A stretch of DNA of 64,000 nucleotides from the NCBI GenBank assembly GCA_963820105.1, contig CAWFYI010000003.1:12475-76474 (forward strand), written 5' to 3'. A model generated the notes under the pieces. The model was not told where the DNA came from and searched no databases. It saw only the letters and a list, made by a program, of their open reading frames with translations. Numbering within the stretch: the stretch's first letter is position 1; each line of letters begins with the position of its first letter. The position numbers and the translations under genes are program-made. Below, one piece after another: positions 1 to 12,325 of this stretch. Origin of the DNA: an uncultured Candidatus Saccharibacteria bacterium (GTDB lineage Bacteria; Patescibacteriota; Saccharimonadia; Saccharimonadales; UBA4665).

Positions 1-1002
1 GCTCTGCGCTCAAACCTTATAACTCTGCACGGCCTGCTCAGATTGATGATGGGCGGCGCGCAGGTCCAAATGGCCGGCGGTTCGGAGGCCTCGACGCCGG
101 CGCTTGCACCTTCTGAAGAAGCAGATCTGGATTCGGCGCTCATAGAGACCTACGCGCGCGCCGGCATCACCAACGACCCGCTGACGCACCAGAGCCGCCC
201 GCCGGCCATAGTGGACCTGTACGACACGTTGTTGCACATGGGCGGTACCGGTCCGACCCTGGCTCAGCGCCTGCGCAAATACACTACGGGCACGTTCGCG
301 GGCATCTTCTCGCAGCAGAGCAATATAGACATCAATAACCCTCTGGTGGTTTTCAACCTGCGCGACCTGGAGGATGAGCTCCGGCCCGTAGCCATGTACA
401 TAGTCCTGAACTACATCTGGAACAAGACCAAGAGCGATCAGAAACGCCGCATTCTGGTCGTGGACGAGGCCTGGCAACTTATGAAATACGAGGATTCGGC
501 TAACTTCCTATTCAGCCTGGCAAAGCGCGCGCGCAAGTACGATCTTGGAGTCACTACGATTTCACAAGACGTCGAAGACTTCATGGGTTCGCGCATGGGC
601 CGGGCCATCGTAGCTAACGCCAGCATGCAGTTCCTGCTCAAGCAATCGCCGTCCGCGGTAGACGTGCTAACCGATGTCTTCAAGCTTACCAGCGAAGAGC
701 ATAAACGTCTGAGTCAGTTCCCGGTCGGCCAGGGGCTTTTCTTTGCCGGGCAGAACCACGTCCACATCCAGATAGTCGCCAGCCCCACTGAAACCAGCCT
801 GATTACCACGAACCCTGACCAGGTCCGTCAAATCGAACAGGCCGCTGAGCGTCAACAGAGCGGCGAGTTCAATCAGGCTGAAGGCTCTATCGACCTTGAC
901 CAAGGCGCCCCGGGTCCGGGAGCCGCGGACCTCGACCAAGGATACGGCGGCAATGATTACGCGCAGCCCGGCGGCAATACAGCCGCCACACCTACCGAAT
1001 AG
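1..1002 (+). CDS. VirB4/TrsE/PrgJ-like type IV secretion ATPase, C-terminal part (5' end outside window)
   Basis: Frame 1 is open from nt 1 with no stop before the listed TTG at 43, so the gene is cut by the window edge. It has a Walker B-like ILVVDEAWQLMKY, then KRARKYDLGVTTISQDVEDF and MQFLLKQS, the typical C-terminal block of VirB4-family conjugation ATPases. The tail is acidic and Gly-rich. Confidence 0.75.
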   Translation, partial: ALRSNLITLHGLLRLMMGGAQVQMAGGSEASTPALAPSEEADLDSALIETYARAGITNDPLTHQSRPPAIVDLYDTLLHMGGTGPTLAQRLRKYTTGTFAGIFSQQSNIDINNPLVVFNLRDLEDELRPVAMYIVLNYIWNKTKSDQKRRILVVDEAWQLMKYEDSANFLFSLAKRARKYDLGVTTISQDVEDFMGSRMGRAIVANASMQFLLKQSPSAVDVLTDVFKLTSEEHKRLSQFPVGQGLFFAGQNHVHIQIVASPTETSLITTNPDQVRQIEQAAERQQSGEFNQAEGSIDLDQGAPGPGAADLDQGYGGNDYAQPGGNTAATPTE

Positions 1003-1041
1003 CGTATAATAAATCTATAAAGTGCTTTAGGTTAAACCAAC

Positions 1042-4000
1042 ATGGCTGAAACAGACATGCAATCGCCCGAGGAGAACAAGCCTGAACTAGGCAGGGACGC
1101 TTTGCGCCGTAGCGAAGGCATGGGCAGCCGCCGGCGCGGCAAGCGCCCAGATGCAAGGTCCAGATCCGGAAGAGGTGTGGGCGGGGGCGGCAGACAGCCT
1201 GACATAAGATCCAGATCCGGAAGAGGTGTGGGCGGGGGCGGCAGACAGCCTGACATAAGATCCAGATCCGGAAGAGGTATGCGTCAGCCTAGCCCCGGAG
1301 GTGGCGGATATGTTCCAAGCCCTTCGGAGCTAGAAGACGCCGAGGAGATGGCGAGTCTTTATAACGACAGCGACGACGACTCCCGCGGCCTGGCACGCGC
1401 GAAACGCATAATGCGATCACGGAGCCGCTTCCTAGCCAAGCACAAGAAAGGCTTCATCGTTTTCAGCACCTTCGGAAGCCTGAGCATCGGCAGCATAATA
1501 ATGCTGGCTAGCGTCTCCCAAGGACCACTGGAATTCATACATCTGGGCCAGTTGCTTGAAAGATTCCATTTTTCCAGCCTGGAAGACGCCCAGAACAACC
1601 GTCTGGTGAAAATCGCCCTCTATATCCATGATCCGACCAAGCCGCAGAATGCCCGCTTAGGTATAGCCGGCAACATTGCGGCCGACCATCTAGAATCTAA
1701 ATTGAACGAGGCCACAGGCCTTAAGTCCGAATATAACTCAGTCAGTGGCCGATCCGAGGGCTATTCGGTAATACACGACAACGAGAAGTTCAAGGGCAAG
1801 AATACGCCTCAGATAAAGGAGGAGTTGGCCCGCAGCTACGGCATAGATCCGGCATCTATCGAGTTATCCGTCAGTACGACCGGGGAACAAACCATCAAAT
1901 TCACTCCAGACCCGGGGGGCTGGAACTCCATCAAAAGATACCGCGCGCAGGTCAAGTTCAGCCGGACGCTACTGACCGAGGCGGGCTATAACAAACTTTC
2001 GACCCATGTGGGTTCGCGGGTGCTCGGAGCACGCGCCGGCTGGACGTTCCATCCCATCAGAGCTCTTGACAATGCCGCGCAGAACGCCGTGCTTGAAGGG
2101 GGCAAAAAGGGCCTGAATAAGCTCCGGGACAAGTTAAACAGCGAGGAGGCCACTTATGAAGCCGATGGCGCTACTACGAGGCCGGGAGGCGAACCGAAGG
2201 CTCAGGAAACGAAGGACGCCGCCGGCAATGACGTCCCGAACCCGCAAGGACAGGAGACTGCCCAGAGCACACAAGATATACAGAACAATGCCGATCAAGT
2301 CGACAACACAGATCCGCAATCGAAGGCCAAGTTCAGCGACTACTTAAACGCCAAGACGGTGGGAGCAGGCGCGGCCGGTTTTGGAGCCGGTATGCTTTGC
2401 TTGGCGCGCAACTTAAACTCCAGCGTTCCGCAAGAGAAGGATAAAAAGGTAAAGAGCCCGATGAGGCGCAAAGCGGGGAAGTTTGGTTTCGCCATACCGA
2501 GCCAAGCACAGAGCGGACAGGATATCGACGCGGTACAGCTTGGCGTCTACAAGGATCACGTGCTCGATACCAAGAATCCGGATACCGGCAGAGTAACGTC
2601 TACCTGGAACCAGGCCCGGAGCATACAGGCCGAACTTGGCCAGAACCTGACCGGCCCAGATTTGCCCAAAAGCCTTCAGGTATTTAACAACGAAAGCCCA
2701 TTTGCTTTCGTAGACAGTATACCGGGGCTAGGCCCGGTGTGCGGCGCGCTTGAGAGCGTGTTCGGGCAGGTGTTCAGCATAGTTACCGGGCCGGTCAGTT
2801 ATCTGGTATCCTCGGCAGTCCTGAAAGAAACGATTCCTATTCTGGTTGATTGGCTATCCGGCTCACCGATAAGCCCGGTAGCTTCCGGGGCCCTGTTCGG
2901 TAATATCGTCAACTACGGGGCCCGGCTTTCCGCCAATGATCTGGCCGCTGCCTTTGGTGCCGTACCGTTAAGCCCAGGCGCTTCGGTAATTCTAAAGAAC
3001 ACCGACGACACGCTTGATAGACAGGACTTCCAATCGAAAAGCGTCGCCTACAGGCTTTTCAACACCAGGGACAGCCGCTCGCTTGCCGGGCGTCTGATCG
3101 ACCAGCAGGACTTAACCGTGACGCCGAACATGGAAAACGTCGCCAGCGATCTTGCCGGTATCTTCAAGACGGCAATAACTATACCCGGCACGCTATTGGC
3201 CGGTACGGCACATGCCGACCCTATCACGCCTTACAACTATCATGGCCTTGAAAAGGTGGGCTTTAGCGCTAGTGAGCTGGGCGATTCCCGTTTCGACAAT
3301 CCTTTCAAGAACGCCTGTTACGTGGTCGGCTGCTCCAGCGCCCATATAAGTGGTATTCTTAACGATCCGGCCAAGTCCCAGACCTACATAGACAGAGCTC
3401 AGAAATGCTTCGGCGTGAACATCACTGATGACGGGGGTATGTGGAACATCGACAGCAAGACCCAAGCGGTCAACTTCGATGACACAAGCTACCCGACGAA
3501 CGACTGCAAGAGTTCCAGCCTGGACTGGCTGAGGATACGCTTCTGGCTGCTCGACACGCCTACGCTGGAAGGCTGGCTCTGCGGCGAGGACCTGGACCAA
3601 CAGTCCTGCCAGGACCTCGGCCTTGGCAATACCTCAAACGTTAATTCTACCGTCAACCCGGCAGCGGGCACCGCCCAACAAATAGCCCAGCAGATCCTGA
3701 ACAATCCCAACGTCACCTACGAATGCGGCTCATCGGCGCAAGACGACATCAAACTCGCGGCACAGGGCAAGCCCGGCACTGCCGGCGCTCCTATCAGCAA
3801 AGCCATACTTCAACTCATAGCCACCATCGGCCAGAGCCACAAGGTGTGCGTTTCGGCTCTTGAAAGCTACGGACAGGGCCATACTACGGGCTCATACCAC
3901 TACACCGGCGACGCCGTGGACTTCGGTAATCTGGACGGCGTCAGCATAACCGGCCGCAACGCGCCAGCCCTTACGATTATAAAAATAGCCGAGGATGTTC

Positions 4001-4146
4001 TACCAAACGGTTCGGAGTTCGGACAATGGCACGACCCCGGTACCGGTGCCTTATGCGGACCGGCGATATCATTCCCGGCCGGCTTCGACCAATTCGACGA
4101 CACTTGCGACCATCTGCACGTCCAGGTGCCTAGGGGCACGCCTTGA
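1042..4146 (+). CDS. 1034-aa membrane-anchored protein: N-terminal Arg/Gly repeat region, TM helix, long ectodomain, C-terminal LAS/M15 (VanY-like) zinc peptidase module
   Basis: Long uninterrupted ORF. The TM segment is GFIVFSTFGSLSIGSIIMLASV. The C-terminal motif SYHYTGDAVD fits SxHxxGxAxD (nt 3892-3921), and DHLH lies at nt 4108-4119, as in M15/VanY/L-Ala-D-Glu peptidases. The gene sits immediately after the VirB4-like gene. Confidence 0.8.
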   Translation: MAETDMQSPEENKPELGRDALRRSEGMGSRRRGKRPDARSRSGRGVGGGGRQPDIRSRSGRGVGGGGRQPDIRSRSGRGMRQPSPGGGGYVPSPSELEDAEEMASLYNDSDDDSRGLARAKRIMRSRSRFLAKHKKGFIVFSTFGSLSIGSIIMLASVSQGPLEFIHLGQLLERFHFSSLEDAQNNRLVKIALYIHDPTKPQNARLGIAGNIAADHLESKLNEATGLKSEYNSVSGRSEGYSVIHDNEKFKGKNTPQIKEELARSYGIDPASIELSVSTTGEQTIKFTPDPGGWNSIKRYRAQVKFSRTLLTEAGYNKLSTHVGSRVLGARAGWTFHPIRALDNAAQNAVLEGGKKGLNKLRDKLNSEEATYEADGATTRPGGEPKAQETKDAAGNDVPNPQGQETAQSTQDIQNNADQVDNTDPQSKAKFSDYLNAKTVGAGAAGFGAGMLCLARNLNSSVPQEKDKKVKSPMRRKAGKFGFAIPSQAQSGQDIDAVQLGVYKDHVLDTKNPDTGRVTSTWNQARSIQAELGQNLTGPDLPKSLQVFNNESPFAFVDSIPGLGPVCGALESVFGQVFSIVTGPVSYLVSSAVLKETIPILVDWLSGSPISPVASGALFGNIVNYGARLSANDLAAAFGAVPLSPGASVILKNTDDTLDRQDFQSKSVAYRLFNTRDSRSLAGRLIDQQDLTVTPNMENVASDLAGIFKTAITIPGTLLAGTAHADPITPYNYHGLEKVGFSASELGDSRFDNPFKNACYVVGCSSAHISGILNDPAKSQTYIDRAQKCFGVNITDDGGMWNIDSKTQAVNFDDTSYPTNDCKSSSLDWLRIRFWLLDTPTLEGWLCGEDLDQQSCQDLGLGNTSNVNSTVNPAAGTAQQIAQQILNNPNVTYECGSSAQDDIKLAAQGKPGTAGAPISKAILQLIATIGQSHKVCVSALESYGQGHTTGSYHYTGDAVDFGNLDGVSITGRNAPALTIIKIAEDVLPNGSEFGQWHDPGTGALCGPAISFPAGFDQFDDTCDHLHVQVPRGTP
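1159..1278 (+). repeat. Perfect 51-bp tandem repeat, 2.35 copies, in frame (17-aa unit RSRSGRGVGGGGRQPDI)
   Basis: Copies at 1159-1209 and 1210-1260 are identical. A third copy matches for 18 nt (1261-1278) before diverging. A degenerate partial copy lies just upstream. Confidence 0.95.
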
Positions 4147-6476
4147 AAAGCATGAGGTCGGTGGTAGCGCCGGCCGCCGGCTTATTACCAAGGGTGCTTT
4201 GCTTTCTACTTTTAACGATATTCTTAGCTTCTCAGCTGGGAGCGATAGCCGAGGCCGATATGCAACCCTACACGCAACCCCAGCTTTTCCAGGCAGGAGT
4301 AGGTTACTTCAATGTTGACGATTGCAGTCCCGGAGCCTCAGCCAGCGCCACGCCAAGCGCAGGCGGAGGAGGCGCGGGCGGCGGCCTAGTATGGCCCTTC
4401 GCCACCAAGAGTAGTTCTCAGTATAACCGGGTGGACGAGGGCTGGGACATCCAGGATAAACCCAGCGCCGACATCTACGCTATAGGGCCCGGCACCTTAG
4501 ACGTATACCTTAAGGATACTGGCAACTTTGGTGACGACTACCCTGTAGAACATATGGATAACGCCCTCGCGGCGTCGGCAGGCTTCGATACTAACTGGGT
4601 ATACTACGGGCATGTGCACATACTTCCCGGCTTGAAAGGAAAGCATGTGGATGCCGGCCAAAAAATTGCTACGGCCAATGGGCCGGGTGCCAGCATCCAC
4701 AATCCTGAGAATGGCTCCGGCGCGGACCCTGGCTGGTTGGAAATAGGCTTCGCTGTAGCCGGCACGGACCAACCTGTGGCTCATGCGACTGGCGAGGCCC
4801 CTAGTGCCGCCGGACAAAAAATGAAAGATTTGCTGCTTAGTGCACAGCCCAGTCCGGGCGCTGCTGTAGTTTCAAGTGCGCCGGGCACTCCATCCTGCGC
4901 CTGTACTTCAAGCGCTTCGTCTCTGGTAGGTAATGGCGATGAGGATAAAATATGGAATTACTTCAAGAGCAAGGGTCTTAGTGATGAACAGGCAGCCGGG
5001 GTTCTGGGCAATATAGCCGACGAAACGGGCAGCACGTGGGATCCCGAGATAGTCCAAGGCGGGGGACATTCCAGTACACAGCCAAAGACTGGCGGGGCGG
5101 ACGGTTGGGGATTGGTGCAGTGGACATATCCTTATCAGGATGTCAGTAAGCTTCTGCATGATAACCATGTAAGCGGAGCCCCGAATGAACTACAGACACA
5201 ATTGGACCTGATCTGGGCGCAAATGAACGGAACCAGCCCCACGGGTGTTAATAATATGGCTGGCGGGTTGAAGGGCATTAATGACGTTTCGCAAGCTGCC
5301 ACTTACTTTTCCGATAACTTCGAGGGTGGCGTGCCGGGAAGCCGGGTCAGCGATGCCCTTGATGCCTACGCCAAGTACAAGGGCACCGGAGGTGGATCCA
5401 CGGGTCCGACCAGTCCTTCGGGAGGCGGCAGTGTGACTACCAGCGATACGCTGAACGGCCACAAACTGCCTGCCACCGTCGGTGGCACCGGACTGGAAAG
5501 CTTCTTCTCGCATTACGCTCTTGGCACACCGGCCAACCAGAATGAAGACAACTACTATATCACCATGCGCTGGCGCTATGACAAATGGAACTGGAACGGA
5601 ACCTCGGTCCCTGGTCCGGAAAGCATAGGATTTTATCAGGGTCACCCTAAGGTCCTAGTTACTAATCCAAGAAACCATAAGAGCATCATAGCCATAGCAC
5701 TTGAGGCTGGTCCGGCACCGTGGACAGGAGTAGACCCTGCGTCTAACAATAACCCGAAGGAGGGCTGGACCAACCCGCAAGACGGTACACCGTCCCAGTA
5801 TAAGGGCAGGGTTTCCGGCTTCCCGCCCCCGGCTACTCATGCACTAGGAGCTATACAGACCACACCAAGCACGGGCGATAAGCTGGAGTACGCATGGGCG
5901 CCGGATCAGAACGCTACGCCTGGCCCCACGAACTTGTCGGTCGATAACGCGGGGGGGGCGGGCTGCGCCACTGCCGGGACTACCGGCAGTGGTAGCAATT
6001 CTGATATCGTCAGCGTGGCGAAGCAGGAGCTTGCGCTGGGATTAAAAGGCACCGGCCCTCTCAATAATGGTGGCCCTGTCTGTAAATACGAAGGCAGCGG
6101 GTGTTCGGAGCCATGGTGCGCCGACTTCGTAAGCTGGGTCTACAAGACAGCAGGCAAGCCGTTCACCGGCGGACATGATGGGGGATGGCGTCTATCTTTG
6201 GCAAGTGAGGTCACTGGATACTTTCTAAGCCGAAAGGGCCAGCCAGATATCGGGTATGGCACGCCGTCCGGCGGTGATAAGATGGAGCCGGGGTGGACTG
6301 TGAGTTTCAGCGGCTCAGAGCCAGGCGACAGGGGCATCGGCCATGTAGGTATAGTGGTCAAAGTTAACAGTGATGGTACATTTGATTATATCGATGGCAA
6401 CGGCGCGGGTGCGGGGGTTTCAGAAAATAAGCACATACAGATGAGTTCGGCTATAGATTGGGGAGGATACAAATGA
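4143..6476 (+). CDS. Secreted multi-module peptidoglycan hydrolase (LytM/M23-like + Phage_lysozyme2-like + RlpA/DPBB-like + CHAP)
   Basis: N-terminal signal/TM is LLPRVLCFLLLTIFLASQLGAIA. The LytM-like block is WVYYGHVHILPGLKGKHVDAGQKIATANG, with the first His motif degenerate. The lysozyme-like block is KIWNYFKSKGLSDEQAAGVLGNIADETGSTWDP...GWGLVQWTYP. The DPBB-like block is KVLVTNPRNHKSIIAIALEAGP. The CHAP block is EPWCADFVSWVYK ... GHVGIVVKV ... IDGNG. The TTG start at 4143 overlaps the upstream TGA (AGGGG sits 6 nt upstream); an alternative ATG is at 4152. Confidence 0.85.
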   Translation: MKSMRSVVAPAAGLLPRVLCFLLLTIFLASQLGAIAEADMQPYTQPQLFQAGVGYFNVDDCSPGASASATPSAGGGGAGGGLVWPFATKSSSQYNRVDEGWDIQDKPSADIYAIGPGTLDVYLKDTGNFGDDYPVEHMDNALAASAGFDTNWVYYGHVHILPGLKGKHVDAGQKIATANGPGASIHNPENGSGADPGWLEIGFAVAGTDQPVAHATGEAPSAAGQKMKDLLLSAQPSPGAAVVSSAPGTPSCACTSSASSLVGNGDEDKIWNYFKSKGLSDEQAAGVLGNIADETGSTWDPEIVQGGGHSSTQPKTGGADGWGLVQWTYPYQDVSKLLHDNHVSGAPNELQTQLDLIWAQMNGTSPTGVNNMAGGLKGINDVSQAATYFSDNFEGGVPGSRVSDALDAYAKYKGTGGGSTGPTSPSGGGSVTTSDTLNGHKLPATVGGTGLESFFSHYALGTPANQNEDNYYITMRWRYDKWNWNGTSVPGPESIGFYQGHPKVLVTNPRNHKSIIAIALEAGPAPWTGVDPASNNNPKEGWTNPQDGTPSQYKGRVSGFPPPATHALGAIQTTPSTGDKLEYAWAPDQNATPGPTNLSVDNAGGAGCATAGTTGSGSNSDIVSVAKQELALGLKGTGPLNNGGPVCKYEGSGCSEPWCADFVSWVYKTAGKPFTGGHDGGWRLSLASEVTGYFLSRKGQPDIGYGTPSGGDKMEPGWTVSFSGSEPGDRGIGHVGIVVKVNSDGTFDYIDGNGAGAGVSENKHIQMSSAIDWGGYK

Positions 6477-7774
6477 ACTCGAGAAAATATGTAATCAGCA
6501 TCGTAGTGTTTTGGATTATAGTCATACTTTTCTTTATAATCGCCAGTCTTCTACACCGGCATAAGCATGTCGATCTATATAGGGCTGCGCCGGGCGGCAC
6601 CAATATAGTGTTCCCGTACCTGGCCGGGTCGCATACCATAGACTACTTCACCGGCTCAAACTTCGCCGCATACGACACTAAAACCCAGACTACCAAGACC
6701 ATCAGCCCGCAGTTTATCTTGCCAACCGTAAGCCAAATGCGCTGGTCGAAAACCGGTGTATTATTTCAGGCGGGCGACTATTCGGCAACCGACAATCTCT
6801 ACCCGGCCCTGATCAAAAAAGGCTTGCCGATCAACGCCGAGTACTGGTGGTTTTATGATTTTGCAACCCAGAAACTCAATACGGTGCTGACGCCCAATCC
6901 TATTAATGGCGTCATGGACGCCTTTTGGAACAGTTCAGGTGATAACTACTGTTATATAGGCGAAGACGGGCGGCTTTACGTGTCTGATTTAACACACTCT
7001 GTCGGAAAGGTCGGATCCGATGCAAGAATCAAACAATTCAACGGCACGACCATAACCCTAGCCCAAGGATCTATGCTAAGACAAATAAGCACTGATGGTC
7101 ATTATGGTAAGACTTTTGTTGACGACAATTTACAGGATGCTTACGTATCTCCGGACGGCAAGACCATAGCATACGTATTGAACACCCACCCGGATTCCAG
7201 CAGTGTTGTTCCGGGCGATTTGTACAAGGTTGACCCCGCAACAGGAAAGTCGCACATGGTTCTTTCCGGGTTCAGCGGCGCAATGGCGGGTAGTGGTGGA
7301 AACCTTTATGCCGGGTATTCCGACAGTGATGGCAAAAATTATCTTCAGCTCTATCCCGAAAATGGAAAACCGATTGACTATTCCTTGGGTGCGTCTTTGA
7401 ACAGGGGTGATCTTATAAGCACGGTACTGCCTGTGAGCCCACGGCTTATATATGTGGTCTCAAAATCAACCAACCTGGTCGAGATAACGAACCAGGAAAA
7501 GCCTGTTTCAACTCCTGTAAGCTACAGGTATAAGATCCAGACCGATCTATATGAGAATGGGTTCGAGATACATTATGACCCCTATAAAAACACGTATGAG
7601 ATAGATATATCCGCCAATCCTTTCACTACATATCAGAACGCCGCCCTGGAATATATACGTGCCCAGCGAGTCGATCCAAATCAGATTAATATAATATGGC
7701 GAGGATACGAGGGTGTTAATACTACAAACCCTGCTGTAGACACTACGCCAATCAGCTCCATACCGCCAGCTTGA
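6473..7774 (+). CDS. Membrane-anchored exoprotein, beta-propeller/TolB-like repeats (hypothetical)
   Basis: ATG at 6473 forms an ATGA overlap with the upstream stop and is preceded by GGGAGG at 6461-6466. The ORF-track TTG at 6458 is less likely. N-terminal TM is YVISIVVFWIIVILFFIIASLL. It has a PD40-like motif YVSPDGKTIAYV and Gly/Asp-rich strand repeats. Confidence 0.6.
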   Translation: MNSRKYVISIVVFWIIVILFFIIASLLHRHKHVDLYRAAPGGTNIVFPYLAGSHTIDYFTGSNFAAYDTKTQTTKTISPQFILPTVSQMRWSKTGVLFQAGDYSATDNLYPALIKKGLPINAEYWWFYDFATQKLNTVLTPNPINGVMDAFWNSSGDNYCYIGEDGRLYVSDLTHSVGKVGSDARIKQFNGTTITLAQGSMLRQISTDGHYGKTFVDDNLQDAYVSPDGKTIAYVLNTHPDSSSVVPGDLYKVDPATGKSHMVLSGFSGAMAGSGGNLYAGYSDSDGKNYLQLYPENGKPIDYSLGASLNRGDLISTVLPVSPRLIYVVSKSTNLVEITNQEKPVSTPVSYRYKIQTDLYENGFEIHYDPYKNTYEIDISANPFTTYQNAALEYIRAQRVDPNQINIIWRGYEGVNTTNPAVDTTPISSIPPA

Positions 7775-7789
7775 TCCTAATATAACTTT

Positions 7790-8839
7790 TTACTTCAACG
7801 GAATGATATTCGTGCTTTCGGTGAAGTGGCCGACTACGGCGTCGGCGTCGGTGGTAGTTATGAACGTCTGGTACGGCGCCAGGTAGTCGGTCAGAGCATG
7901 GCGGCGTTTGCCGTCCAGCTCGCTGAATACATCGTCCAGTAAAAACAGCGGGGGTGTTCCGCGCAGTTCCTCGATGATCTTCAGCTCGATGATCTTCAGG
8001 GCCAGCACAGCGGTGCGGATTTCGCCGCGCGAGGCGGCTTCCTGCGCCGGTCGTCCATCGAACTCGGCGGCCAGGTCCTCGCGGTGCGGTCCAGCGCCAG
8101 TGAAGCCTCGCGCGCGGTCCAGTTCCAGCTCGTTTTCCAGTTCCTTTAGTAGCCTGGTCTCGTAGTTATCTGGCGTCCAGCGGCTCCGGTACTCCACCGT
8201 AAACTTCATTCTCGTGCCGGATAGTTTGCGATACAGTTTGGCGGCGTCTTGGTCCAGGCGTTCTGCTAGTTCGTGGCGGCACCGGACTATCTGCCCGGCT
8301 AGTTCGCTCAGGCGCACATCCCAGGGAAATATCCGGCTTTGTGTGCCGTGCTGTTTCAACAAACTGTTGCGCTGAGCCAGAGCTCGCCGGTATTTGCGCC
8401 TGAGCGCACCGTATCCAGGCATCGTTTGTTCAAGCATATCATCCAGGTAGTCCCGCCGGCGTTCCGGGCCGCCGGACAGCATGCGCAGGTCCTCCGGCTC
8501 AAACAACGCTGTAGGTAGTGTGTGTGGCTGGCTAAGACGCTTGTAAGTCTTTCCATCAAGCTCATAAACCTTGTTGCGTTCCGGTTCCAGGGTGAGCTTG
8601 ACTGTGCGCTGGCCGCCGTTGTCTATATGGGCGTCCAGGCGCGCCCAGGACTTATTGAACATGACCAATTCCTGGTCGCGTGCGCGGTACGAACCGCCGC
8701 GCGCCAGTACTAGAAGCGCCTCTAACAAATTTGTCTTGCCGCTGGCATTGGGGCCGACAATAATGTTTACTCCGCTACTAAGCTCGAACGACGAATCTCT
8801 ATAGGAGCGGAAATTCTGCAGCCTTATGTCCGTGATCAT
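7790..8839 (-). CDS. recF: DNA replication and repair protein RecF
   Basis: N-terminus is MITDIRLQNFRSY with Walker A GPNASGKTNLLEAL. C-terminus has LLDDVFSELD. It follows dnaN in the canonical dnaA-dnaN-recF order. Confidence 0.92.
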   Translation of the reverse strand: MITDIRLQNFRSYRDSSFELSSGVNIIVGPNASGKTNLLEALLVLARGGSYRARDQELVMFNKSWARLDAHIDNGGQRTVKLTLEPERNKVYELDGKTYKRLSQPHTLPTALFEPEDLRMLSGGPERRRDYLDDMLEQTMPGYGALRRKYRRALAQRNSLLKQHGTQSRIFPWDVRLSELAGQIVRCRHELAERLDQDAAKLYRKLSGTRMKFTVEYRSRWTPDNYETRLLKELENELELDRARGFTGAGPHREDLAAEFDGRPAQEAASRGEIRTAVLALKIIELKIIEELRGTPPLFLLDDVFSELDGKRRHALTDYLAPYQTFITTTDADAVVGHFTESTNIIPLK

Positions 8840-8856
8840 ACCGGTATTGTATATGC

Positions 8857-9948
8857 CTAGCTCTTCAGCGGCATAATAATATGCCTGTAGTCGTCATTGG
8901 CTGGGTCGTATATGAGCGTAGGCTCAAGTTTGCCATTGAACCCAAATACAACCTCTTCTCCGGTCAGAGCGCCTAGGGCATCGAGCAAGTAGCGTGAATT
9001 AAGTGTGATGCTGCCGTCGGCGGTTATTTTAGCGTCAGCGGTAGCGGTGTTCTTGCCAAGTTGGGAGGCAACAGAGCGTATGCTTAGGTTTTTGGCTGAT
9101 TTATCGAGTTCTATGGTCACGCTACCTGCGCTTTCGCGGGCAAACAAACTAGAAACCTTGGTCACGTTAATAAAATCGGCTTTTTTTAAAGTAGCTTTGG
9201 ATTTGAATGTATTGGGGATTAGTTTTTTATAATCAGGGTATTTTCCGTCCAGTAGGCGGGTTACCAACTCTATGTCGCCTACTTGGAAGAGTATTTGTTG
9301 TTCGTCGTGTGTTATTTTTACTTGGTCGTCCGTTTCGCCGAGCACCCTTAACAAGTCCTGCATGGCTGAAGCTGGTACAAGCAGGTGGATATTTTCTTTG
9401 TTTTTGCCCAGCCCCTTTTCCGCGAGGCGGTAGCTGTCTGTCGCAGCCATTGAAAGAGTGCCCTCTGCTGTTTGCAGAAGTACTCCTGTTAAAACTGGTC
9501 GTGTTTCGTCGGCTGAAGCCGCAAACACTACTTGTTGTAGGGCTTTTTTAAACTCGGGCCCGGGAACGCTCCATTTTTTGCCAGAGGAAATAGCTGGCAT
9601 AACTGGGAAATCATCGGCCATTATACCGTTTACCACGGATTTATATTGGTCAGTGGAAACATGAAGTTTGGTTTCTTGAAGGTCTAGCTCTATAACCCCT
9701 CCAGGAAGGCTGCTAACGAAATCCTGCATAAGCCGAGCGGGGACGGTGATAGACCCTTCTTCAGAAACTTTGGCGCCGATCAGATGGGTTATGGCTATAT
9801 CAAGGTTGGTAGCTGACAAACTCAATCGATTATTGCTGGTTTTTATCAAAACATTGGAGAGTATGGGGAGGGTGCCGCGGTTATTGGCGACTTTAGCCAC
9901 TGAGTTTAGTGCGCGATTGAGGTTTTCTTGTGTAACTTGTAGCTTCAT
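8857..9948 (-). CDS. dnaN: DNA polymerase III beta sliding clamp
   Basis: 363 aa. The N-terminus MKLQVTQENLNRALNSVAKVANNRGTLPILSNVLI is typical of DnaN, and the gene lies between dnaA and recF. Confidence 0.95.
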   Translation of the reverse strand: MKLQVTQENLNRALNSVAKVANNRGTLPILSNVLIKTSNNRLSLSATNLDIAITHLIGAKVSEEGSITVPARLMQDFVSSLPGGVIELDLQETKLHVSTDQYKSVVNGIMADDFPVMPAISSGKKWSVPGPEFKKALQQVVFAASADETRPVLTGVLLQTAEGTLSMAATDSYRLAEKGLGKNKENIHLLVPASAMQDLLRVLGETDDQVKITHDEQQILFQVGDIELVTRLLDGKYPDYKKLIPNTFKSKATLKKADFINVTKVSSLFARESAGSVTIELDKSAKNLSIRSVASQLGKNTATADAKITADGSITLNSRYLLDALGALTGEEVVFGFNGKLEPTLIYDPANDDYRHIIMPLKS

Positions 9949-10179
9949 TACAAACCCTTCTATTAATAACTAAATAAATTAAAAAACTTTGTTGTTATTA
10001 GGGTTGTGGAATGTGGGTAAAAAAACCGGCTCAACAGAGAGAAAACCCTGAAATTGCTTGTGGGAAAGGTTTGGTAAAGTGTGGGGAGAGAATTTGTATA
10101 ACTAACACCCGCTATAAAACCAGGCACAGTTTGTGCACAGTAACCCCCCACTAATACCACAGGATTTCCCCAGACGACA
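9949..10179. other. dnaA-dnaN intergenic region with AT-rich tract; possible second origin module or DNA-unwinding element
   Basis: A very AT-rich run lies at about 9961-9998 (tattaataactaaataaattaaaaaactttgttgttatta). There is one 1-mismatch DnaA box, TGTGGGTAA, at 10012-10020; other candidates have 2 or more mismatches. Confidence 0.3.
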
Positions 10180-11568
10180 TTAAGCATACAAATGCTCCTT
10201 GATTTCAGATATTGCCATGCGTAAAGACGCGTCGGCGCGAGCCTCACGGTCAATTTTGTCTACGGAATGAATAGCGGTCGTATGATCTTTACGGCCAAGC
10301 TCCCTGGCTATCTTCGGAAAACTTAATTTAAGTTCAGAACGCAATATATACATAGCAACCTGTCGCGGCACCACTATATCTTTGTCGCGCTTAGGGCCCA
10401 CTATATCCTCCATAGACACCTGGAAATGCCGCGCTGTACGCTCGATTATCTGCTTGGCGCTCAAGTGCTTAGGTCTGGTTTTGTTGACGCTCAGCAAGCT
10501 GGATGCGATGGCTAGTGTGGGTTCCAAACCGCGCATTTCACAATAAGCCAATAATTGGTTTAACGCCCCTTCTAATTCCCGGATATTGGTCTGCATACTA
10601 GTGGCCAAATATTCTACTACTTCATTGTCTAGCTCACTGTCGTGGTAGCCGGCTTTTGTCTGAACTATTGCACAACGCGTTTCAAAATCCGGCACCTGCA
10701 TATCAATCCCCATCCCCCCTGTAAAACGCGACTTGAGACGGTCTTCCAGGGTAGGAATGTTCTTCGGCGGCTTGTCGGCACTTAGGATTATTTGTTTGTT
10801 GGCCTCGTGCAAAGCGTTAAACGTATGAAAAAATTCTTCCTGGACCTTCTCTTTTCCAGCTATGAACTGTACATCATCCACGATTAGCACATCGGCGGTG
10901 CGGTAGTGCCTGGCAAAAGCAGCGGTCTTGCGAAAACGCAAAGCGTCTACAAACTCCTGCACGAATTGCTCGGTAGATATATAAAGCACCCTGGAGTCCG
11001 GGTTCCTGGCCGCAAGAGTATTACCCACAGCTTGGATTAAGTGGGTTTTTCCTATGCCCACGCCGCCATACAGGAAGAGGGGATTGTATTTGGCGCCAGG
11101 TTTCTGGGCTACTGACTGGCAGGCCGCGAACGCCAGCTCGTTCCCGTCGCCAACCACGAAATTATCGAAAGTATAGCGTTCGTTCAACCCCTGGCGGTAG
11201 GAGTGTCCTAAACCGTTGCCGGCACTGGCGGGAGTGTCCGGCTTGGGGGCCGCCTTAATCTCGGCTGCCGGCTCAACAACTTCTCTGTATTCAGAACGGC
11301 TCTTACTGGTTTGTGCCGAGACCGTGTACTCTATGTTGTTGACCGCGACACCATTTTTATCCAAGGTTTTGGTTATAAGATCGCCGTACTTACGCTCCAA
11401 TTGCTGTTTGATAAAGATATTGGGAACGCCCACTACCAGATTATCACCCTCGTGTTTGATAAGGTTCGTGTTTTTAAACCAGGTAACGTAATTGCCGTGT
11501 GAAACAGACAGCTCGATTTCTCCTAGAACAGTCTGCCATAAGACACCTGGCTGCATAGCACTCCCCAT
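10180..11568 (-). CDS. dnaA: Chromosomal replication initiator DnaA
   Basis: AAA+ Walker A is LYGGVGIGKTHLIQAVGN, Walker B is LIVDDVQF, and the C-terminal DNA-binding helix is GRKDHTTAIHSVDKI. Confidence 0.97.
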   Translation of the reverse strand: MGSAMQPGVLWQTVLGEIELSVSHGNYVTWFKNTNLIKHEGDNLVVGVPNIFIKQQLERKYGDLITKTLDKNGVAVNNIEYTVSAQTSKSRSEYREVVEPAAEIKAAPKPDTPASAGNGLGHSYRQGLNERYTFDNFVVGDGNELAFAACQSVAQKPGAKYNPLFLYGGVGIGKTHLIQAVGNTLAARNPDSRVLYISTEQFVQEFVDALRFRKTAAFARHYRTADVLIVDDVQFIAGKEKVQEEFFHTFNALHEANKQIILSADKPPKNIPTLEDRLKSRFTGGMGIDMQVPDFETRCAIVQTKAGYHDSELDNEVVEYLATSMQTNIRELEGALNQLLAYCEMRGLEPTLAIASSLLSVNKTRPKHLSAKQIIERTARHFQVSMEDIVGPKRDKDIVVPRQVAMYILRSELKLSFPKIARELGRKDHTTAIHSVDKIDREARADASLRMAISEIKEHLYA

Positions 11569-11607
11569 TTACTTTTCGTACTCTTAATATACGGAATCTA
11601 TCATAAG

Positions 11608-11732
11608 TTTTCCACAAAGAATCGACAAGCATAGGCGTAAAGGCCGGGAAAAACAGCACCAGAGGGAAAATTATACACAAGCCAAAATCACCCCAGTTAA
11701 ATTGTGGACAAAAGCCTTTATGTAGTGGATAA
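11608..11732. other. oriC candidate: cluster of four 1-mismatch DnaA boxes in the dnaA/rpmH divergent spacer
   Basis: The boxes are TTTTCCACA (11608-11616), TTATACACA (11671-11679), TGTGGACAA (11703-11711) and AGTGGATAA (11724-11732), compared with consensus TTATCCACA/TGTGGATAA. The spacer 11569-11852 separates divergently transcribed dnaA and rpmH. Confidence 0.6.
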
Positions 11733-11852
11733 CCCTCGACCGAAAGGCGGATAAACATTGTTAAAACCACACGCTGGCGGCCGATGGGTGCAACTCTTTA
11801 CATACAGGGGCAAAACAGCTATAGTCTTACAGATACGAACCGATAGGAATAT

Positions 11853-11990
11853 ATGCCGAAACGGACCCACCAGCCCAAGAAACGATCACGCGCCCGCGAG
11901 CACGGCTTTTTGAAACGCATGGCCACCAAGAGCGGCCGGAACGTCCTGAAGCGACGCCGCGACAAAAAGCGCGCCAAACTCTCTGCATGA
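11853..11990 (+). CDS. rpmH: 50S ribosomal protein L34 (below the ORF-track size cutoff)
   Basis: Hand translation gives [45 protein letters not shown] (45 aa), a good match to the L34 consensus. Its TGA overlaps the rnpA ATG (ATGA at 11987-11990). Confidence 0.93.
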
Positions 11991-12325
11991 TCGGACGCGC
12001 CCACCGGTTCCATGGACATAATGCGCTTAACGGCGTCTATCGCCGCGGCAGAACTGTCCGCGCCTCTTTAATGAGTCTGCGCATTGCCGCCCGTGATTCT
12101 AAAAAACCTTACCGCGTGGCGGTGGTGGTCAGCCGCAAGGTCAATAAATCGGCGGTGATACGCAACCGTATACGCAGACGCGTCTACGCGGCGGTTAGAA
12201 AGACTGCTACAGAAGTGAATCCGGGGACCGATCTGGTCTTCACCGTCTTCAGCGACAAGGTGAGGGAAGTACCGGCGGATGAACTGCAAGAAATAGTCGC
12301 CGGGCTGCTCGGCAAAGCCGCCTGA
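11987..12325 (+). CDS. rnpA: Ribonuclease P protein component
   Basis: A 112-aa basic protein with [33 protein letters not shown] (the RNR motif region), in the canonical position after rpmH. Confidence 0.85.

Follow-up and report, generated by a model that had tools for sequence, protein, structure and literature searches.

In Southlakia epibionticum ML1 (Se ML1), Wang et al. (2023) described an essential type IV secretion system (T4SS) encoded by SEML1_0006 to SEML1_0019 (PMC10633639), whose lower-numbered neighbors are dnaA (0001), dnaN (0002), recF (0003), and the genes of two small exported proteins (0004 and 0005) (PMC10633639, Tables S1 and S2). SEML1_0006 (643 amino acids [aa]) combines glucosaminidase and Phage_lysozyme2 domains with an ECOD cysteine proteinase domain, and SEML1_0007 (1113 aa) carries an ECOD Hedgehog/DD-peptidase domain at residues 951 to 1105 (DPAM probability, 0.993) and has "Peptidase M15B" and "Peptidase M23" among its Foldseek neighbors; SEML1_0008 is VirB4, SEML1_0010 is a PrgI-family protein, and VirB6-like proteins and a pilin array are also present (PMC10633639). 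By transposon sequencing (Tn-seq), SEML1_0004 to SEML1_0010 were scored essential (ES) (PMC10633639). A Patescibacteria-wide survey by Quinonero-Coronel et al. (2025) placed VirB4 next to the monoderm MPF-FATA class, located the system near dnaA, found relaxases lacking, and considered that the peptidase and lysozyme homologues directly after virB4 probably fill the VirB1 role (PMC12102498); the Se ML1 cluster is also discussed in PMC12857230. Here, we analyzed a 64,000-nucleotide (nt) stretch of an uncultured Saccharimonadales genome (contig CAWFYI010000003.1; the whole stretch is called the window below), whose positions 1 to 7774 encode a VirB4-like ATPase, two large envelope proteins of 1034 and 777 aa with peptidoglycan-hydrolase-type domains, and a 433-aa protein.

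For the 777-aa protein, a described counterpart is PrgK of the Enterococcus faecalis plasmid pCF10. According to Sun et al. (2024), three extracellular domains are predicted in PrgK, namely LytM, SLT/muramidase, and CHAP; neither HxxxD nor HxH is present in the LytM domain, which binds no metal, the middle domain is a gp13-like muramidase in which Glu573 is catalytically important, C766 and H828 are the CHAP catalytic residues, and the muramidase is down-regulated by LytM and CHAP (PMC11323569). In a 2025 T4SS nomenclature review, PrgK is a three-domain "DELTA-class" VirB1.

Set against these descriptions, the region is very probably the downstream end of a chromosomal, origin-proximal Saccharimonadales T4SS, the same system as SEML1_0004 to SEML1_0019. 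The locus is therefore best described as a new environmental lineage of the published system, that is, a lineage-specific version of a known design and not a new kind of system. An earlier interpretation made from the letters alone (the sequence-only reading) had regarded such an arsenal as unusual, taking PrgK to have one or two catalytic domains. The latter figure is wrong, as PrgK has three extracellular domains (PMC11323569; Pfam scan), and the claim of unusualness fails because the PrgK precedent, which gives the same Pfam order, and the published Saccharibacteria cluster, with peptidase and lysozyme after virB4 beside dnaA (PMC10633639, PMC12102498), already cover it.

The ATPase and the conserved gene order identify the secretion system

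The window begins inside virB4 and cuts off the 5' part of this gene; the upstream gene content given below comes from homologous loci, not from the window's own upstream DNA. The 333-aa VirB4 fragment has its best NCBIfam match in conju_CD1110 (E = 5.8e-43), with further matches to TraC-F-type (1e-31), Mbov_0397, and VirB4_CagE (7e-17) and to Pfam P-loop_TraG (E = 2.4e-15); the scores lie under the full-length cut-offs because only a fragment is present. By these profiles, the ATPase is a VirB4 of the Gram-positive CD1110/MPF-FATA type. The thought that it might instead be an FtsK/HerA-like protein was rejected on the same profile check, as the best NCBIfam matches are all VirB4/TraC families.

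A scan of genome contigs returned eight loci, with a cultivated Saccharibacterium in none of them, and the homologues of the 1034-aa and 777-aa proteins all come from Saccharimonadales or Patescibacteria metagenomes. On a 917-kb contig (L018), five T4SS_pilin genes, TrbL_3 (941 aa), a 236-aa gene, PrgI, and a TraC-like gene lead up to VirB4 (658 aa), which is followed by a 1042-aa homologue of the window's large protein, an 839-aa hydrolase, a 189-aa gene, and a 439-aa gene; the locus ends in recF, dnaN, dnaA, rnpA, yidC, and jag. The core order is repeated in L001, L002, L003, and L017, with PrgI and a TraC-like gene present in L002 and L003, and the shared arrangement reads pilins, TrbL_3, PrgI, TraC-like, VirB4, ~1000-aa protein, hydrolase, ~440-aa protein, recF, dnaN, dnaA. 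In these four loci and L018, the recF-dnaN-dnaA neighbors carry Pfam SMC_N, DNA_pol3_beta, and Bac_DnaA. The ~1000-aa gene always lies between virB4 and the lysozyme gene in the related loci, and a relaxase or coupling protein is not present nearby. The assignment of the region to a T4SS module, already made from the letters, is thus upheld both by the VirB4 profile matches and by the PrgI, TraC/TrsD-like, TrbL/VirB6-like, and pilin genes upstream in homologous loci. In the window itself, recF, dnaN, and dnaA on the minus strand and then rnpA on the plus strand lie directly downstream, and the region therefore abuts the replication origin.

The 777-aa protein follows the module order of PrgK

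The sole hydrophobic helix of the 777-aa protein spans residues 18 to 36 and has about 17 residues before it; the AlphaFold2 (AF2) model has a helix at residues 15 to 29, and a possible cleavage site lies between AIA and EA. The full-length AF2 model has an overall predicted local distance difference test score (pLDDT) of 57, and its X (see below) and CHAP regions are unusable.

The first module matches Pfam M23 under the cut-off (E = 0.015, residues 98 to 182). A profile built from 14 relatives, however, matches the M23 peptidase PDB 9gy1 at an E value of 2.9e-6, with RVDqGWD opposite RMHNGID, and Foldseek searches with the model (pLDDT, 55 to 89 in this region) found LytM, ShyA, lysostaphin, EnvC, and DipM (E values, 4e-4 to 2e-3). 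At the level of profile and predicted structure, the M23/LytM fold is confirmed. The active site is a different matter: D98-E-G-W-D102 (D98-x3-D102) stands in place of HxxxD, the YxH motif is kept as YGH157VH159, and the site of HxH is occupied by an invariant P-G-W-L-E (G-W-L-E at residues 197 to 200) that contains no His. Among the 14 relatives, D19, D23, H78, H80, and E121 of the profile (A3) are invariant, and the alignment of the module to E. coli MepM ends before the HLH motif of MepM. Because HxxxD is DxxxD and HxH is absent, the module is probably non-catalytic, with a predicted binding or regulatory role as in PrgK; the label "LytM-like" of the sequence-only reading is right for the fold (Foldseek, 9gy1 profile) but not for a zinc peptidase site.

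The next module is a Phage_lysozyme2 domain that scores above the Pfam cut-off (E = 1.1e-21) and is modeled with a pLDDT of >90. Its top Foldseek match is the lysozyme domain of phi29 gp13 (3csr; E = 1.8e-4, TMt 0.65), and the putative catalytic Glu is E294. The C-terminal CHAP domain likewise exceeds its cut-off (E = 7.7e-11; 42.8 bits versus a cut-off of 26), and phmmer matched it to the CHAP region of 5t1q around GHVGIV. The motifs first noticed in the letters were found at residues 657 to 665 (PWCADFVSW) and 733 to 739 (GHVGIVV); C659 lies within WCADFVSW, and WCADFVSW and GIGHVGI are conserved in seven relatives. As domain predictions, the Phage_lysozyme2 and CHAP assignments, with their catalytic residues present, are robust.

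In a scan with the same Pfam library, the matches of PrgK are M23 under the cut-off (E = 0.017, residues 427 to 496), Phage_lysozyme2 (3e-29, residues 544 to 719), and CHAP (7e-21, residues 757 to 847). In pCF10, the PrgK gene, labeled "phage tail tip lysozyme" in RefSeq, comes directly after PrgI and the CD1110-type VirB4 (PrgJ). BLASTP aligned the 777-aa protein to PrgK with an E value of 0.001 and 26% identity over the lysozyme domain, placing E294 opposite PrgK E573 and CHAP H734 opposite PrgK H828.

Between lysozyme and CHAP lies a further module, domain X (residues 431 to 602). Profile A4 of the close family found no PDB match, and a Pfam scan of the segment found none either. The broader profile A6 has as its top PDB match the double-psi beta-barrel (DPBB) protein PA4485 (4avr; E = 0.15, not significant), with two collinear motifs aligned; Pfam DPBB_1 appears in 2 of 26 family members (best E value, 0.03) and kiwellin, another DPBB family, in 1 of 26. 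By hhalign, X aligns with E. coli RlpA over the barrel core, ARITNLANGRMIVVRINDRGP...RVISLSRAAADRL (P 6.5e-4), where E521 lies opposite the Asp of the RlpA motif NDRGP, a position at which some distant members have Asp. AF2 failed on this domain (pLDDT, 26 to 46). X is thus probably an RlpA-like DPBB, not a proven one, and the RlpA/DPBB-like label given from the letters stands as probable on these weak but concordant matches. RlpA-type barrels act on peptide-free glycan.

The X of the window carries an insertion of ~25 aa that is absent from distant members, which show the pattern KKVIVTNPxNGKxVVAxVxExGPAxWTGRVSGLSPEAMxALGA. The family (proteins P0067 to P0212 included) comprises at least 226 clusters at 50% identity, as counted in an exhaustive profile search; in the distant members, X stands C-terminal to Amidase_2 or subtilase S8 or N-terminal to Peptidase_C39_2. 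No Pfam model covers the family, a candidate for a new curated domain family that is predicted to be DPBB-like and wall-associated.

The 1034-aa protein joins a conserved body to a variable C-terminal domain

One transmembrane (TM) helix anchors the 1034-aa protein. It lies at residues 138 to 156 (Kyte-Doolittle, 1.96 in a 19-residue window) and is the sole segment above 1.6, with weaker Gly/Ala-rich hydrophobic stretches at residues 437 to 455 and 563 to 602. The sequence-only reading had described an anchored 1034-aa protein and a secreted 777-aa protein, in agreement with this TM helix and with the signal/anchor helix of its partner. The N-terminal tail is not conserved in the family alignment A1; the low-complexity tails of the homologues are unrelated and of other lengths. 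Within the tail-coding sequence, Tandem Repeats Finder located a 51-bp tandem repeat at positions 1155 to 1278 (2.4 copies, 98% matches), which encodes RSRSGRGVGGGGRQPDI repeats with the peptide RSRSGRG at residues 39, 56, and 73.

Thirteen homologues share 39 to 58% identity with the protein over ~850 aa, and its body of ~700 aa is conserved at 39 to 58% identity in 12 relatives. A relationship to VirB6/ConG/Orf15 was tried and, at this sensitivity, rejected, as hhalign against Tn916 Orf15 gave P 0.07 over 14 residues. The full-length AF2 model has a pLDDT of 46, and Foldseek searches with this low-confidence model returned noise only (PDB, BFVD).

In the C-terminal domain, for which AF2 gives a pLDDT of 65 to 90, the motifs SYHYTGDAVD (residues 951 to 960) and DHLHV (residues 1023 to 1027) were found where the sequence-only reading had read a LAS/M15 zinc-peptidase signature. 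H, G, A, D, and HxH, including H953, D960, H1024, and H1026, are invariant in 16 aligned C-terminal domains (A5 and A7), and the domain of most relatives has invariant H-x6-D and C-x-H-x-H. By hhalign, it aligns with E. coli MepK (M15A) over the helix, S-x-x strand, and H..G.A.DF region (P 0.013) and with the N-terminal domain of Sonic hedgehog (SHH-N; P 0.0014, with a manually entered SHH-N sequence); Pfam HH_signal was found at an E value of 0.14 in one of nine members. Two stand-alone relatives, P0058 and P0059, have two PG_binding_1 repeats before the LAS-like domain. PDB searches with profiles A5 and A7 of the domain, and with the whole 1034-aa family, were negative, and the domain had no significant Pfam or NCBIfam match; PHROGs, searched with four segments in all, likewise gave none. 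Given its invariant motifs, the weak alignments by hhalign, and what has been published on SEML1_0007 at the corresponding position, the domain is quite probably of the LAS (Hedgehog/DD-peptidase) type; the earlier LAS/M15 label agrees with the invariant H-x6-D and H-x-H and with these alignments but has no Pfam, NCBIfam, or PDB profile match behind it. The same reading had counted five peptidoglycan-cleaving modules in the two proteins. Phage_lysozyme2 and CHAP are solid and LAS and DPBB probable, but the M23 module is probably non-catalytic, and the count is too high.

Hydrolase modules are exchanged at two positions of a fixed cluster

Both proteins swap hydrolase modules between close relatives, and the rest of the cluster is fixed. 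In the 1034-aa family, the C-terminal ~165 residues vary: they are LAS-like in most members, CHAP-like in P0040 (E = 0.005), and M23-like in P0045 to P0047 (E = 0.002), of which P0046 is named M23 metallopeptidase by NCBI. In the partner gene, module sets vary around a nearly constant Phage_lysozyme2 core. The core is accompanied by M23-like, DPBB, and CHAP modules in the window, by an Amidase_3 or beta-lactamase-like module with DPBB and CHAP in P0003 and P0005, by an SGNH esterase with DPBB in P0011 and L013, by SGNH, GH3, and M23-like modules in L011, by glucosaminidase and CHAP in L012 (as in Se ML1), and by a second Lysozyme2 copy with Amidase_2 in P0012; P0025 in L018 has 3D, Amidase_2, and M23-like modules and no Lysozyme2. 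This is a modestly new observation, as our literature search found no paper analyzing module variation at the two hydrolase slots.

The variation fits selection by variable target walls, although shuffling is also common in autolysins and phage lysins. An extension of this thought, which we consider unlikely as it stands, is that the gene pair makes up a hydrolase cassette undergoing rapid reshuffling within a fixed slot of a conserved, essential T4SS, with a module set matched to host wall chemistry; the cassette would comprise a LAS, CHAP, or M23 tip for the 1034-aa family member and varied modules around a constant muramidase for its partner. If true, the cassette would be a host-range determinant of Saccharibacteria that works on the wall of the host where the two cells meet. 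Should module variation track host wall type, it would offer a concrete, testable handle on the host specificity of ultrasmall epibionts; should it not, the locus would be another example of a known gene cluster.

A proposed mechanism and whose wall may be cut

Taken together, the identity of the system and the mechanism proposed here for the hydrolase pair make up a likely account, and the mechanism considered by itself is one toward which we lean with some reserve. In it, the 777-aa protein would be the VirB1-type wall hydrolase of the system, Sec-exported or anchored, whose gp13/PrgK-type muramidase probably does the cutting, on glycan strands; the degenerate LytM module and the CHAP and DPBB modules would serve in peptidoglycan binding, in modulation of the muramidase, or in secondary cleavages, the RlpA-like barrel presumably being an insertion between muramidase and CHAP. 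The 1034-aa protein would be a clade-specific T4SS component whose cytoplasmic N-terminal tail is followed by a membrane anchor and a large conserved ectodomain, and it would hold a zinc LAS peptidase near the machine, where stem peptides or cross-links could be cut. Both proteins would thereby open a local peptidoglycan gap for the T4SS channel and a VirB2-like pilus. The enzymatic activities, their regulation, and whose wall is cut are matters that we infer.

Several observations weigh against this account. Pfam, NCBIfam, and the PDB yielded no match for the body of the 1034-aa protein, and the structural role of this body is a guess because it matches nothing known, Orf15 and PDB entries included. 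The LAS and DPBB assignments come without a significant database match, the full-length AF2 model of the 1034-aa protein being unsearchable and that of the 777-aa protein poor over X. Sequence similarity to PrgK is only remote (E = 0.001 over the lysozyme domain), and tblastn of the 777-aa protein against PLSDB gave one weak match, on a non-mobilizable plasmid. In addition, PrgK has a ~400-aa cytoplasmic N-terminal domain and a TM helix, whereas the 777-aa protein has only a signal/anchor helix; a 137-aa cytoplasmic tail and TM helix are found instead in the neighboring 1034-aa protein.

The hydrolases, especially the distal peptidase of the 1034-aa protein, may also act on host peptidoglycan at the contact site, the pilus or channel reaching the host membrane and the modules being tuned to the host wall chemotype. 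Such breaching of the host wall is compatible with self-wall remodeling and with the mechanism above, and we regard it as possible but doubtful. A host-directed function is suggested because epibiotic growth requires the T4SS counterparts and because the system has neither a relaxase nor a coupling protein nearby. It would also suit the exchange of modules between close relatives in an otherwise conserved cluster, with LAS-like, CHAP-like (P0040), or M23-like (P0045 to P0047) C-terminal domains in the 1034-aa family and M23-like, DPBB, CHAP, Amidase_2, Amidase_3, SGNH esterase, GH3, glucosaminidase, 3D, and beta-lactamase-like modules in the partner gene, among which SGNH esterases would fit removal of wall O-acetyl groups. 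However, in Gram-positive T4SSs the wall attacked by PrgK-type hydrolases is that of the donor itself (PMC11323569), and modules are commonly shuffled in autolysins and phage lysins at large. Nor can essentiality tell a self target from a host target, because Se ML1 grows only in co-culture.

Two further explanations would take the proteins out of the secretion machine altogether. Some T4SSs (e.g., of Xanthomonas) deliver peptidoglycan hydrolase toxins, and the multiple lytic modules in both proteins could be read in the same way, as secreted antibacterial effectors that kill competitors or the host. Both proteins, however, have Sec-type N-terminal signal or anchor helices and not T4SS C-terminal signals, the 1034-aa protein is membrane-anchored with a conserved non-enzymatic body of 700 aa, a small immunity-like gene is not conserved next to the two genes, and the Se ML1 counterparts are essential, which would be unexpected of toxins; we hold this explanation to be highly improbable. 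Hardly any weight, finally, is given to the idea that the two are housekeeping autolysins of growth or division that merely adjoin T4SS genes near the origin. The dnaA-dnaN-recF neighborhood is a housekeeping one, and M23, CHAP, and RlpA-like domains occur in division autolysins, but 4-nt overlaps tie the genes into a single-strand operon with virB4, their order with VirB4 and PrgI is conserved across relatives whose 1034-aa homologues share only 39 to 58% identity, and architecture and position match PrgK and Tn916 Orf14.

Locus layout and gene junctions

Four open reading frames (ORFs), all on the plus strand, fill positions 1 to 7774 (Table 1).

TABLE 1 Features at the origin-proximal T4SS end of the window and in the adjoining genes (positions in nt)
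Feature	Position	Strand	Details
virB4 C-terminal fragment, 333 aa	1..1002	+	ORF list; gene cut by window edge
Gene of 1034-aa membrane-anchored protein	1042..4146	+	ORF list
Arg/Gly-rich N-terminus, probably cytoplasmic and disordered	1042..1452	+	pLDDT <35
TM helix	1453..1509	+	aa 138-156 (FIVFSTFGSLSIGSIIMLA), basic residues before helix
C-terminal putative LAS-type zinc peptidase domain	3652..4143	+	aa 871-1034; H953-x6-D960, H1024-x-H1026
Gene of 777-aa exported multidomain peptidoglycan hydrolase (predicted)	4143..6476	+	ORF list, Pfam, Foldseek, PrgK comparison
Signal peptide or signal anchor	4143..4256	+	Hydrophobic helix aa 18-36, Kyte-Doolittle 2.32
M23/LytM-fold domain	4380..4862	+	aa 80-240; profile and Foldseek
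Phage_lysozyme2 muramidase domain (phi29 gp13/PrgK "MUR" type)	4926..5387	+	aa 268-402, Pfam PF18013
Domain X, probable RlpA-like DPBB	5433..5948	+	aa 431-602; weak concordant profile matches
CHAP amidase/peptidase domain	6060..6473	+	aa 655-753, Pfam PF05257, C659 and H734
433-aa conserved cluster gene, N-terminal TM helix	6473..7774	+	ATG 6473; listed ORF 6458..7774, TTG, 438 aa
recF	7790-8839	-	ORF translations
dnaN	8857-9948	-	ORF translations
dnaA	10180-11568	-	ORF translations

A gap of 39 nt separates the virB4 fragment from the 1034-aa gene. The coordinates read from the letters were confirmed, and the coupling of the genes is seen in two overlaps, TTGA at 4143 to 4146 and ATGA at 6473 to 6476; these 4-nt overlaps are consistent with one operon. 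At the first junction, a G-rich, Shine-Dalgarno-like run lies upstream, the TTG start of the 777-aa gene overlaps the upstream stop, and the ATG at 4152 is an alternative start. At the second, a GGGGAGG run lies 6 nt upstream of ATG 6473. Given this run and the ATGA overlap, the last cluster gene most likely starts at ATG 6473 and would encode 433 aa, in preference to the TTG at 6458.

A gene of 433 to 442 aa occupies the same slot in L001, L002, L003, and L018. Searches of Pfam, NCBIfam, and PHROG with the 433-aa protein gave nothing beyond PD40 at an E value of 0.05. The corresponding place in Se ML1 is taken by a pair of smaller essential genes, SEML1_0005 and SEML1_0004, of which one has a PEGA domain and the other is prealbumin-like (PMC10633639).

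Across window positions 1 to 64000, G+C content ranges from 45% to 58% in 2-kb blocks; it is 57% over the three large T4SS-end genes (1 to 6000) versus 49 to 51% for 6001 to 12000 (last cluster gene and recF-dnaN-dnaA). ARAGORN detected neither tRNA nor tmRNA genes anywhere in these 64 kb.

Among the related loci, L003 has a second T4SS-like set beyond dnaA (L003:17501-21845), consisting of TrbC/T4SS_pilin, TrbL_3, PrgI, TraC-like, and VirB4 genes, whereas rnpA-yidC-jag lies on the far side of dnaA in the window and the other relatives. The first VirB4 of L003 is split into small ORFs by frameshifts or long-read assembly errors. L009 (DATNAB010000103.1) and L014 (DATNAB010000031.1) belong to a metagenome-assembled genome labeled "Verrucomicrobiia bacterium" and encode close homologues (52 to 58% identity) of both the 1034-aa protein of Saccharimonadales and the partner hydrolase; they probably reflect binning contamination in this public assembly.

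Comparison with known systems

The overall organization is closest to that of Se ML1, which belongs to the same phylum and class. Both loci have the order VirB4, a protein of ~1000 to 1100 aa with a C-terminal Hedgehog/DD-peptidase-type domain, and a hydrolase with Phage_lysozyme2 and Cys-peptidase domains; recF-dnaN-dnaA adjoin the cluster in both, and PrgI, TrsD-like, VirB6-like, and pilin array genes lie upstream in the window's relative L018. The 1034-aa and 777-aa proteins are positional counterparts of SEML1_0007 and SEML1_0006, matched by position and published annotation and not by sequence identity, and only in Se ML1 have the counterparts been shown to be essential (Tn-seq). The hydrolases differ in composition, the window having M23-like, Lysozyme2, DPBB-like, and CHAP modules in 777 aa and SEML1_0006 having glucosaminidase, Lysozyme2, and Cys proteinase domains in 643 aa. 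In addition, one 433-aa gene follows downstream in the window, whereas Se ML1 has two (0005 and 0004).

In the Tn916/ICEBs1-type module (ConE-ConG-CwlT), grouped here as a comparison for the same gene order, VirB4 (Orf16) is followed by a large membrane protein (Orf15), a bifunctional lysozyme/C40 wall hydrolase (Orf14), and a small conjugation protein. The 1034-aa family, however, is not detectably homologous to Orf15; it has one clear TM helix, not many, and the window's member ends in its own peptidase domain. The gp13 protein of phi29 also pairs its lysozyme module, the top Foldseek match (3csr), with an M23-fold module, and Pfam PF18013 is named for phage tail lysozymes. The domain order is reversed, however, phage context is absent from the window, and the window's M23-fold module has no zinc-binding motifs, whereas the M23 domain of gp13 is described as an active endopeptidase.

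For the C-terminal domain of the 1034-aa protein, the reference is the LAS group (MEROPS M15, with MepK/YcbK, VanX/VanY, and the Streptomyces zinc D-Ala-D-Ala carboxypeptidase, and the Hedgehog N-terminal domain). It shares the invariant H-x6-D and H-x-H, and its local HYxGxAVDF resembles S-x-H-x-x-G-x-A-x-D. The N-terminal PG_binding_1 repeats in the relatives of the window protein are a further likeness and recall the architecture of the Streptomyces enzyme. It differs in lacking a match to any Pfam M15 family, in the low hhalign probabilities (3 to 18%) behind its putative fold, and in being fused to a T4SS-associated protein of ~870 aa (cytoplasmic tail, membrane anchor, and ectodomain of ~700 aa).

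With PrgK, the 777-aa protein shares an identical module order (weak M23/LytM, Phage_lysozyme2, CHAP), a degenerate LytM active site, and a gene position downstream of a CD1110-type VirB4 that follows PrgI. PrgK is plasmid-borne, whereas the window system is chromosomal, and its related loci show neither a relaxase nor a coupling protein close by; the 1034-aa gene sits between virB4 and the hydrolase gene in the window, and the extra DPBB-like module (residues 431 to 602) lies between lysozyme and CHAP. As judged from its domains, the 777-aa protein is a VirB1-type hydrolase on the PrgK plan, with a barrel added and the long cytoplasmic domain absent. The window thus adds to the published Saccharibacteria system an environmental lineage in which the VirB1 slot is taken by a PrgK-like protein bearing one more barrel module, probably RlpA-like.

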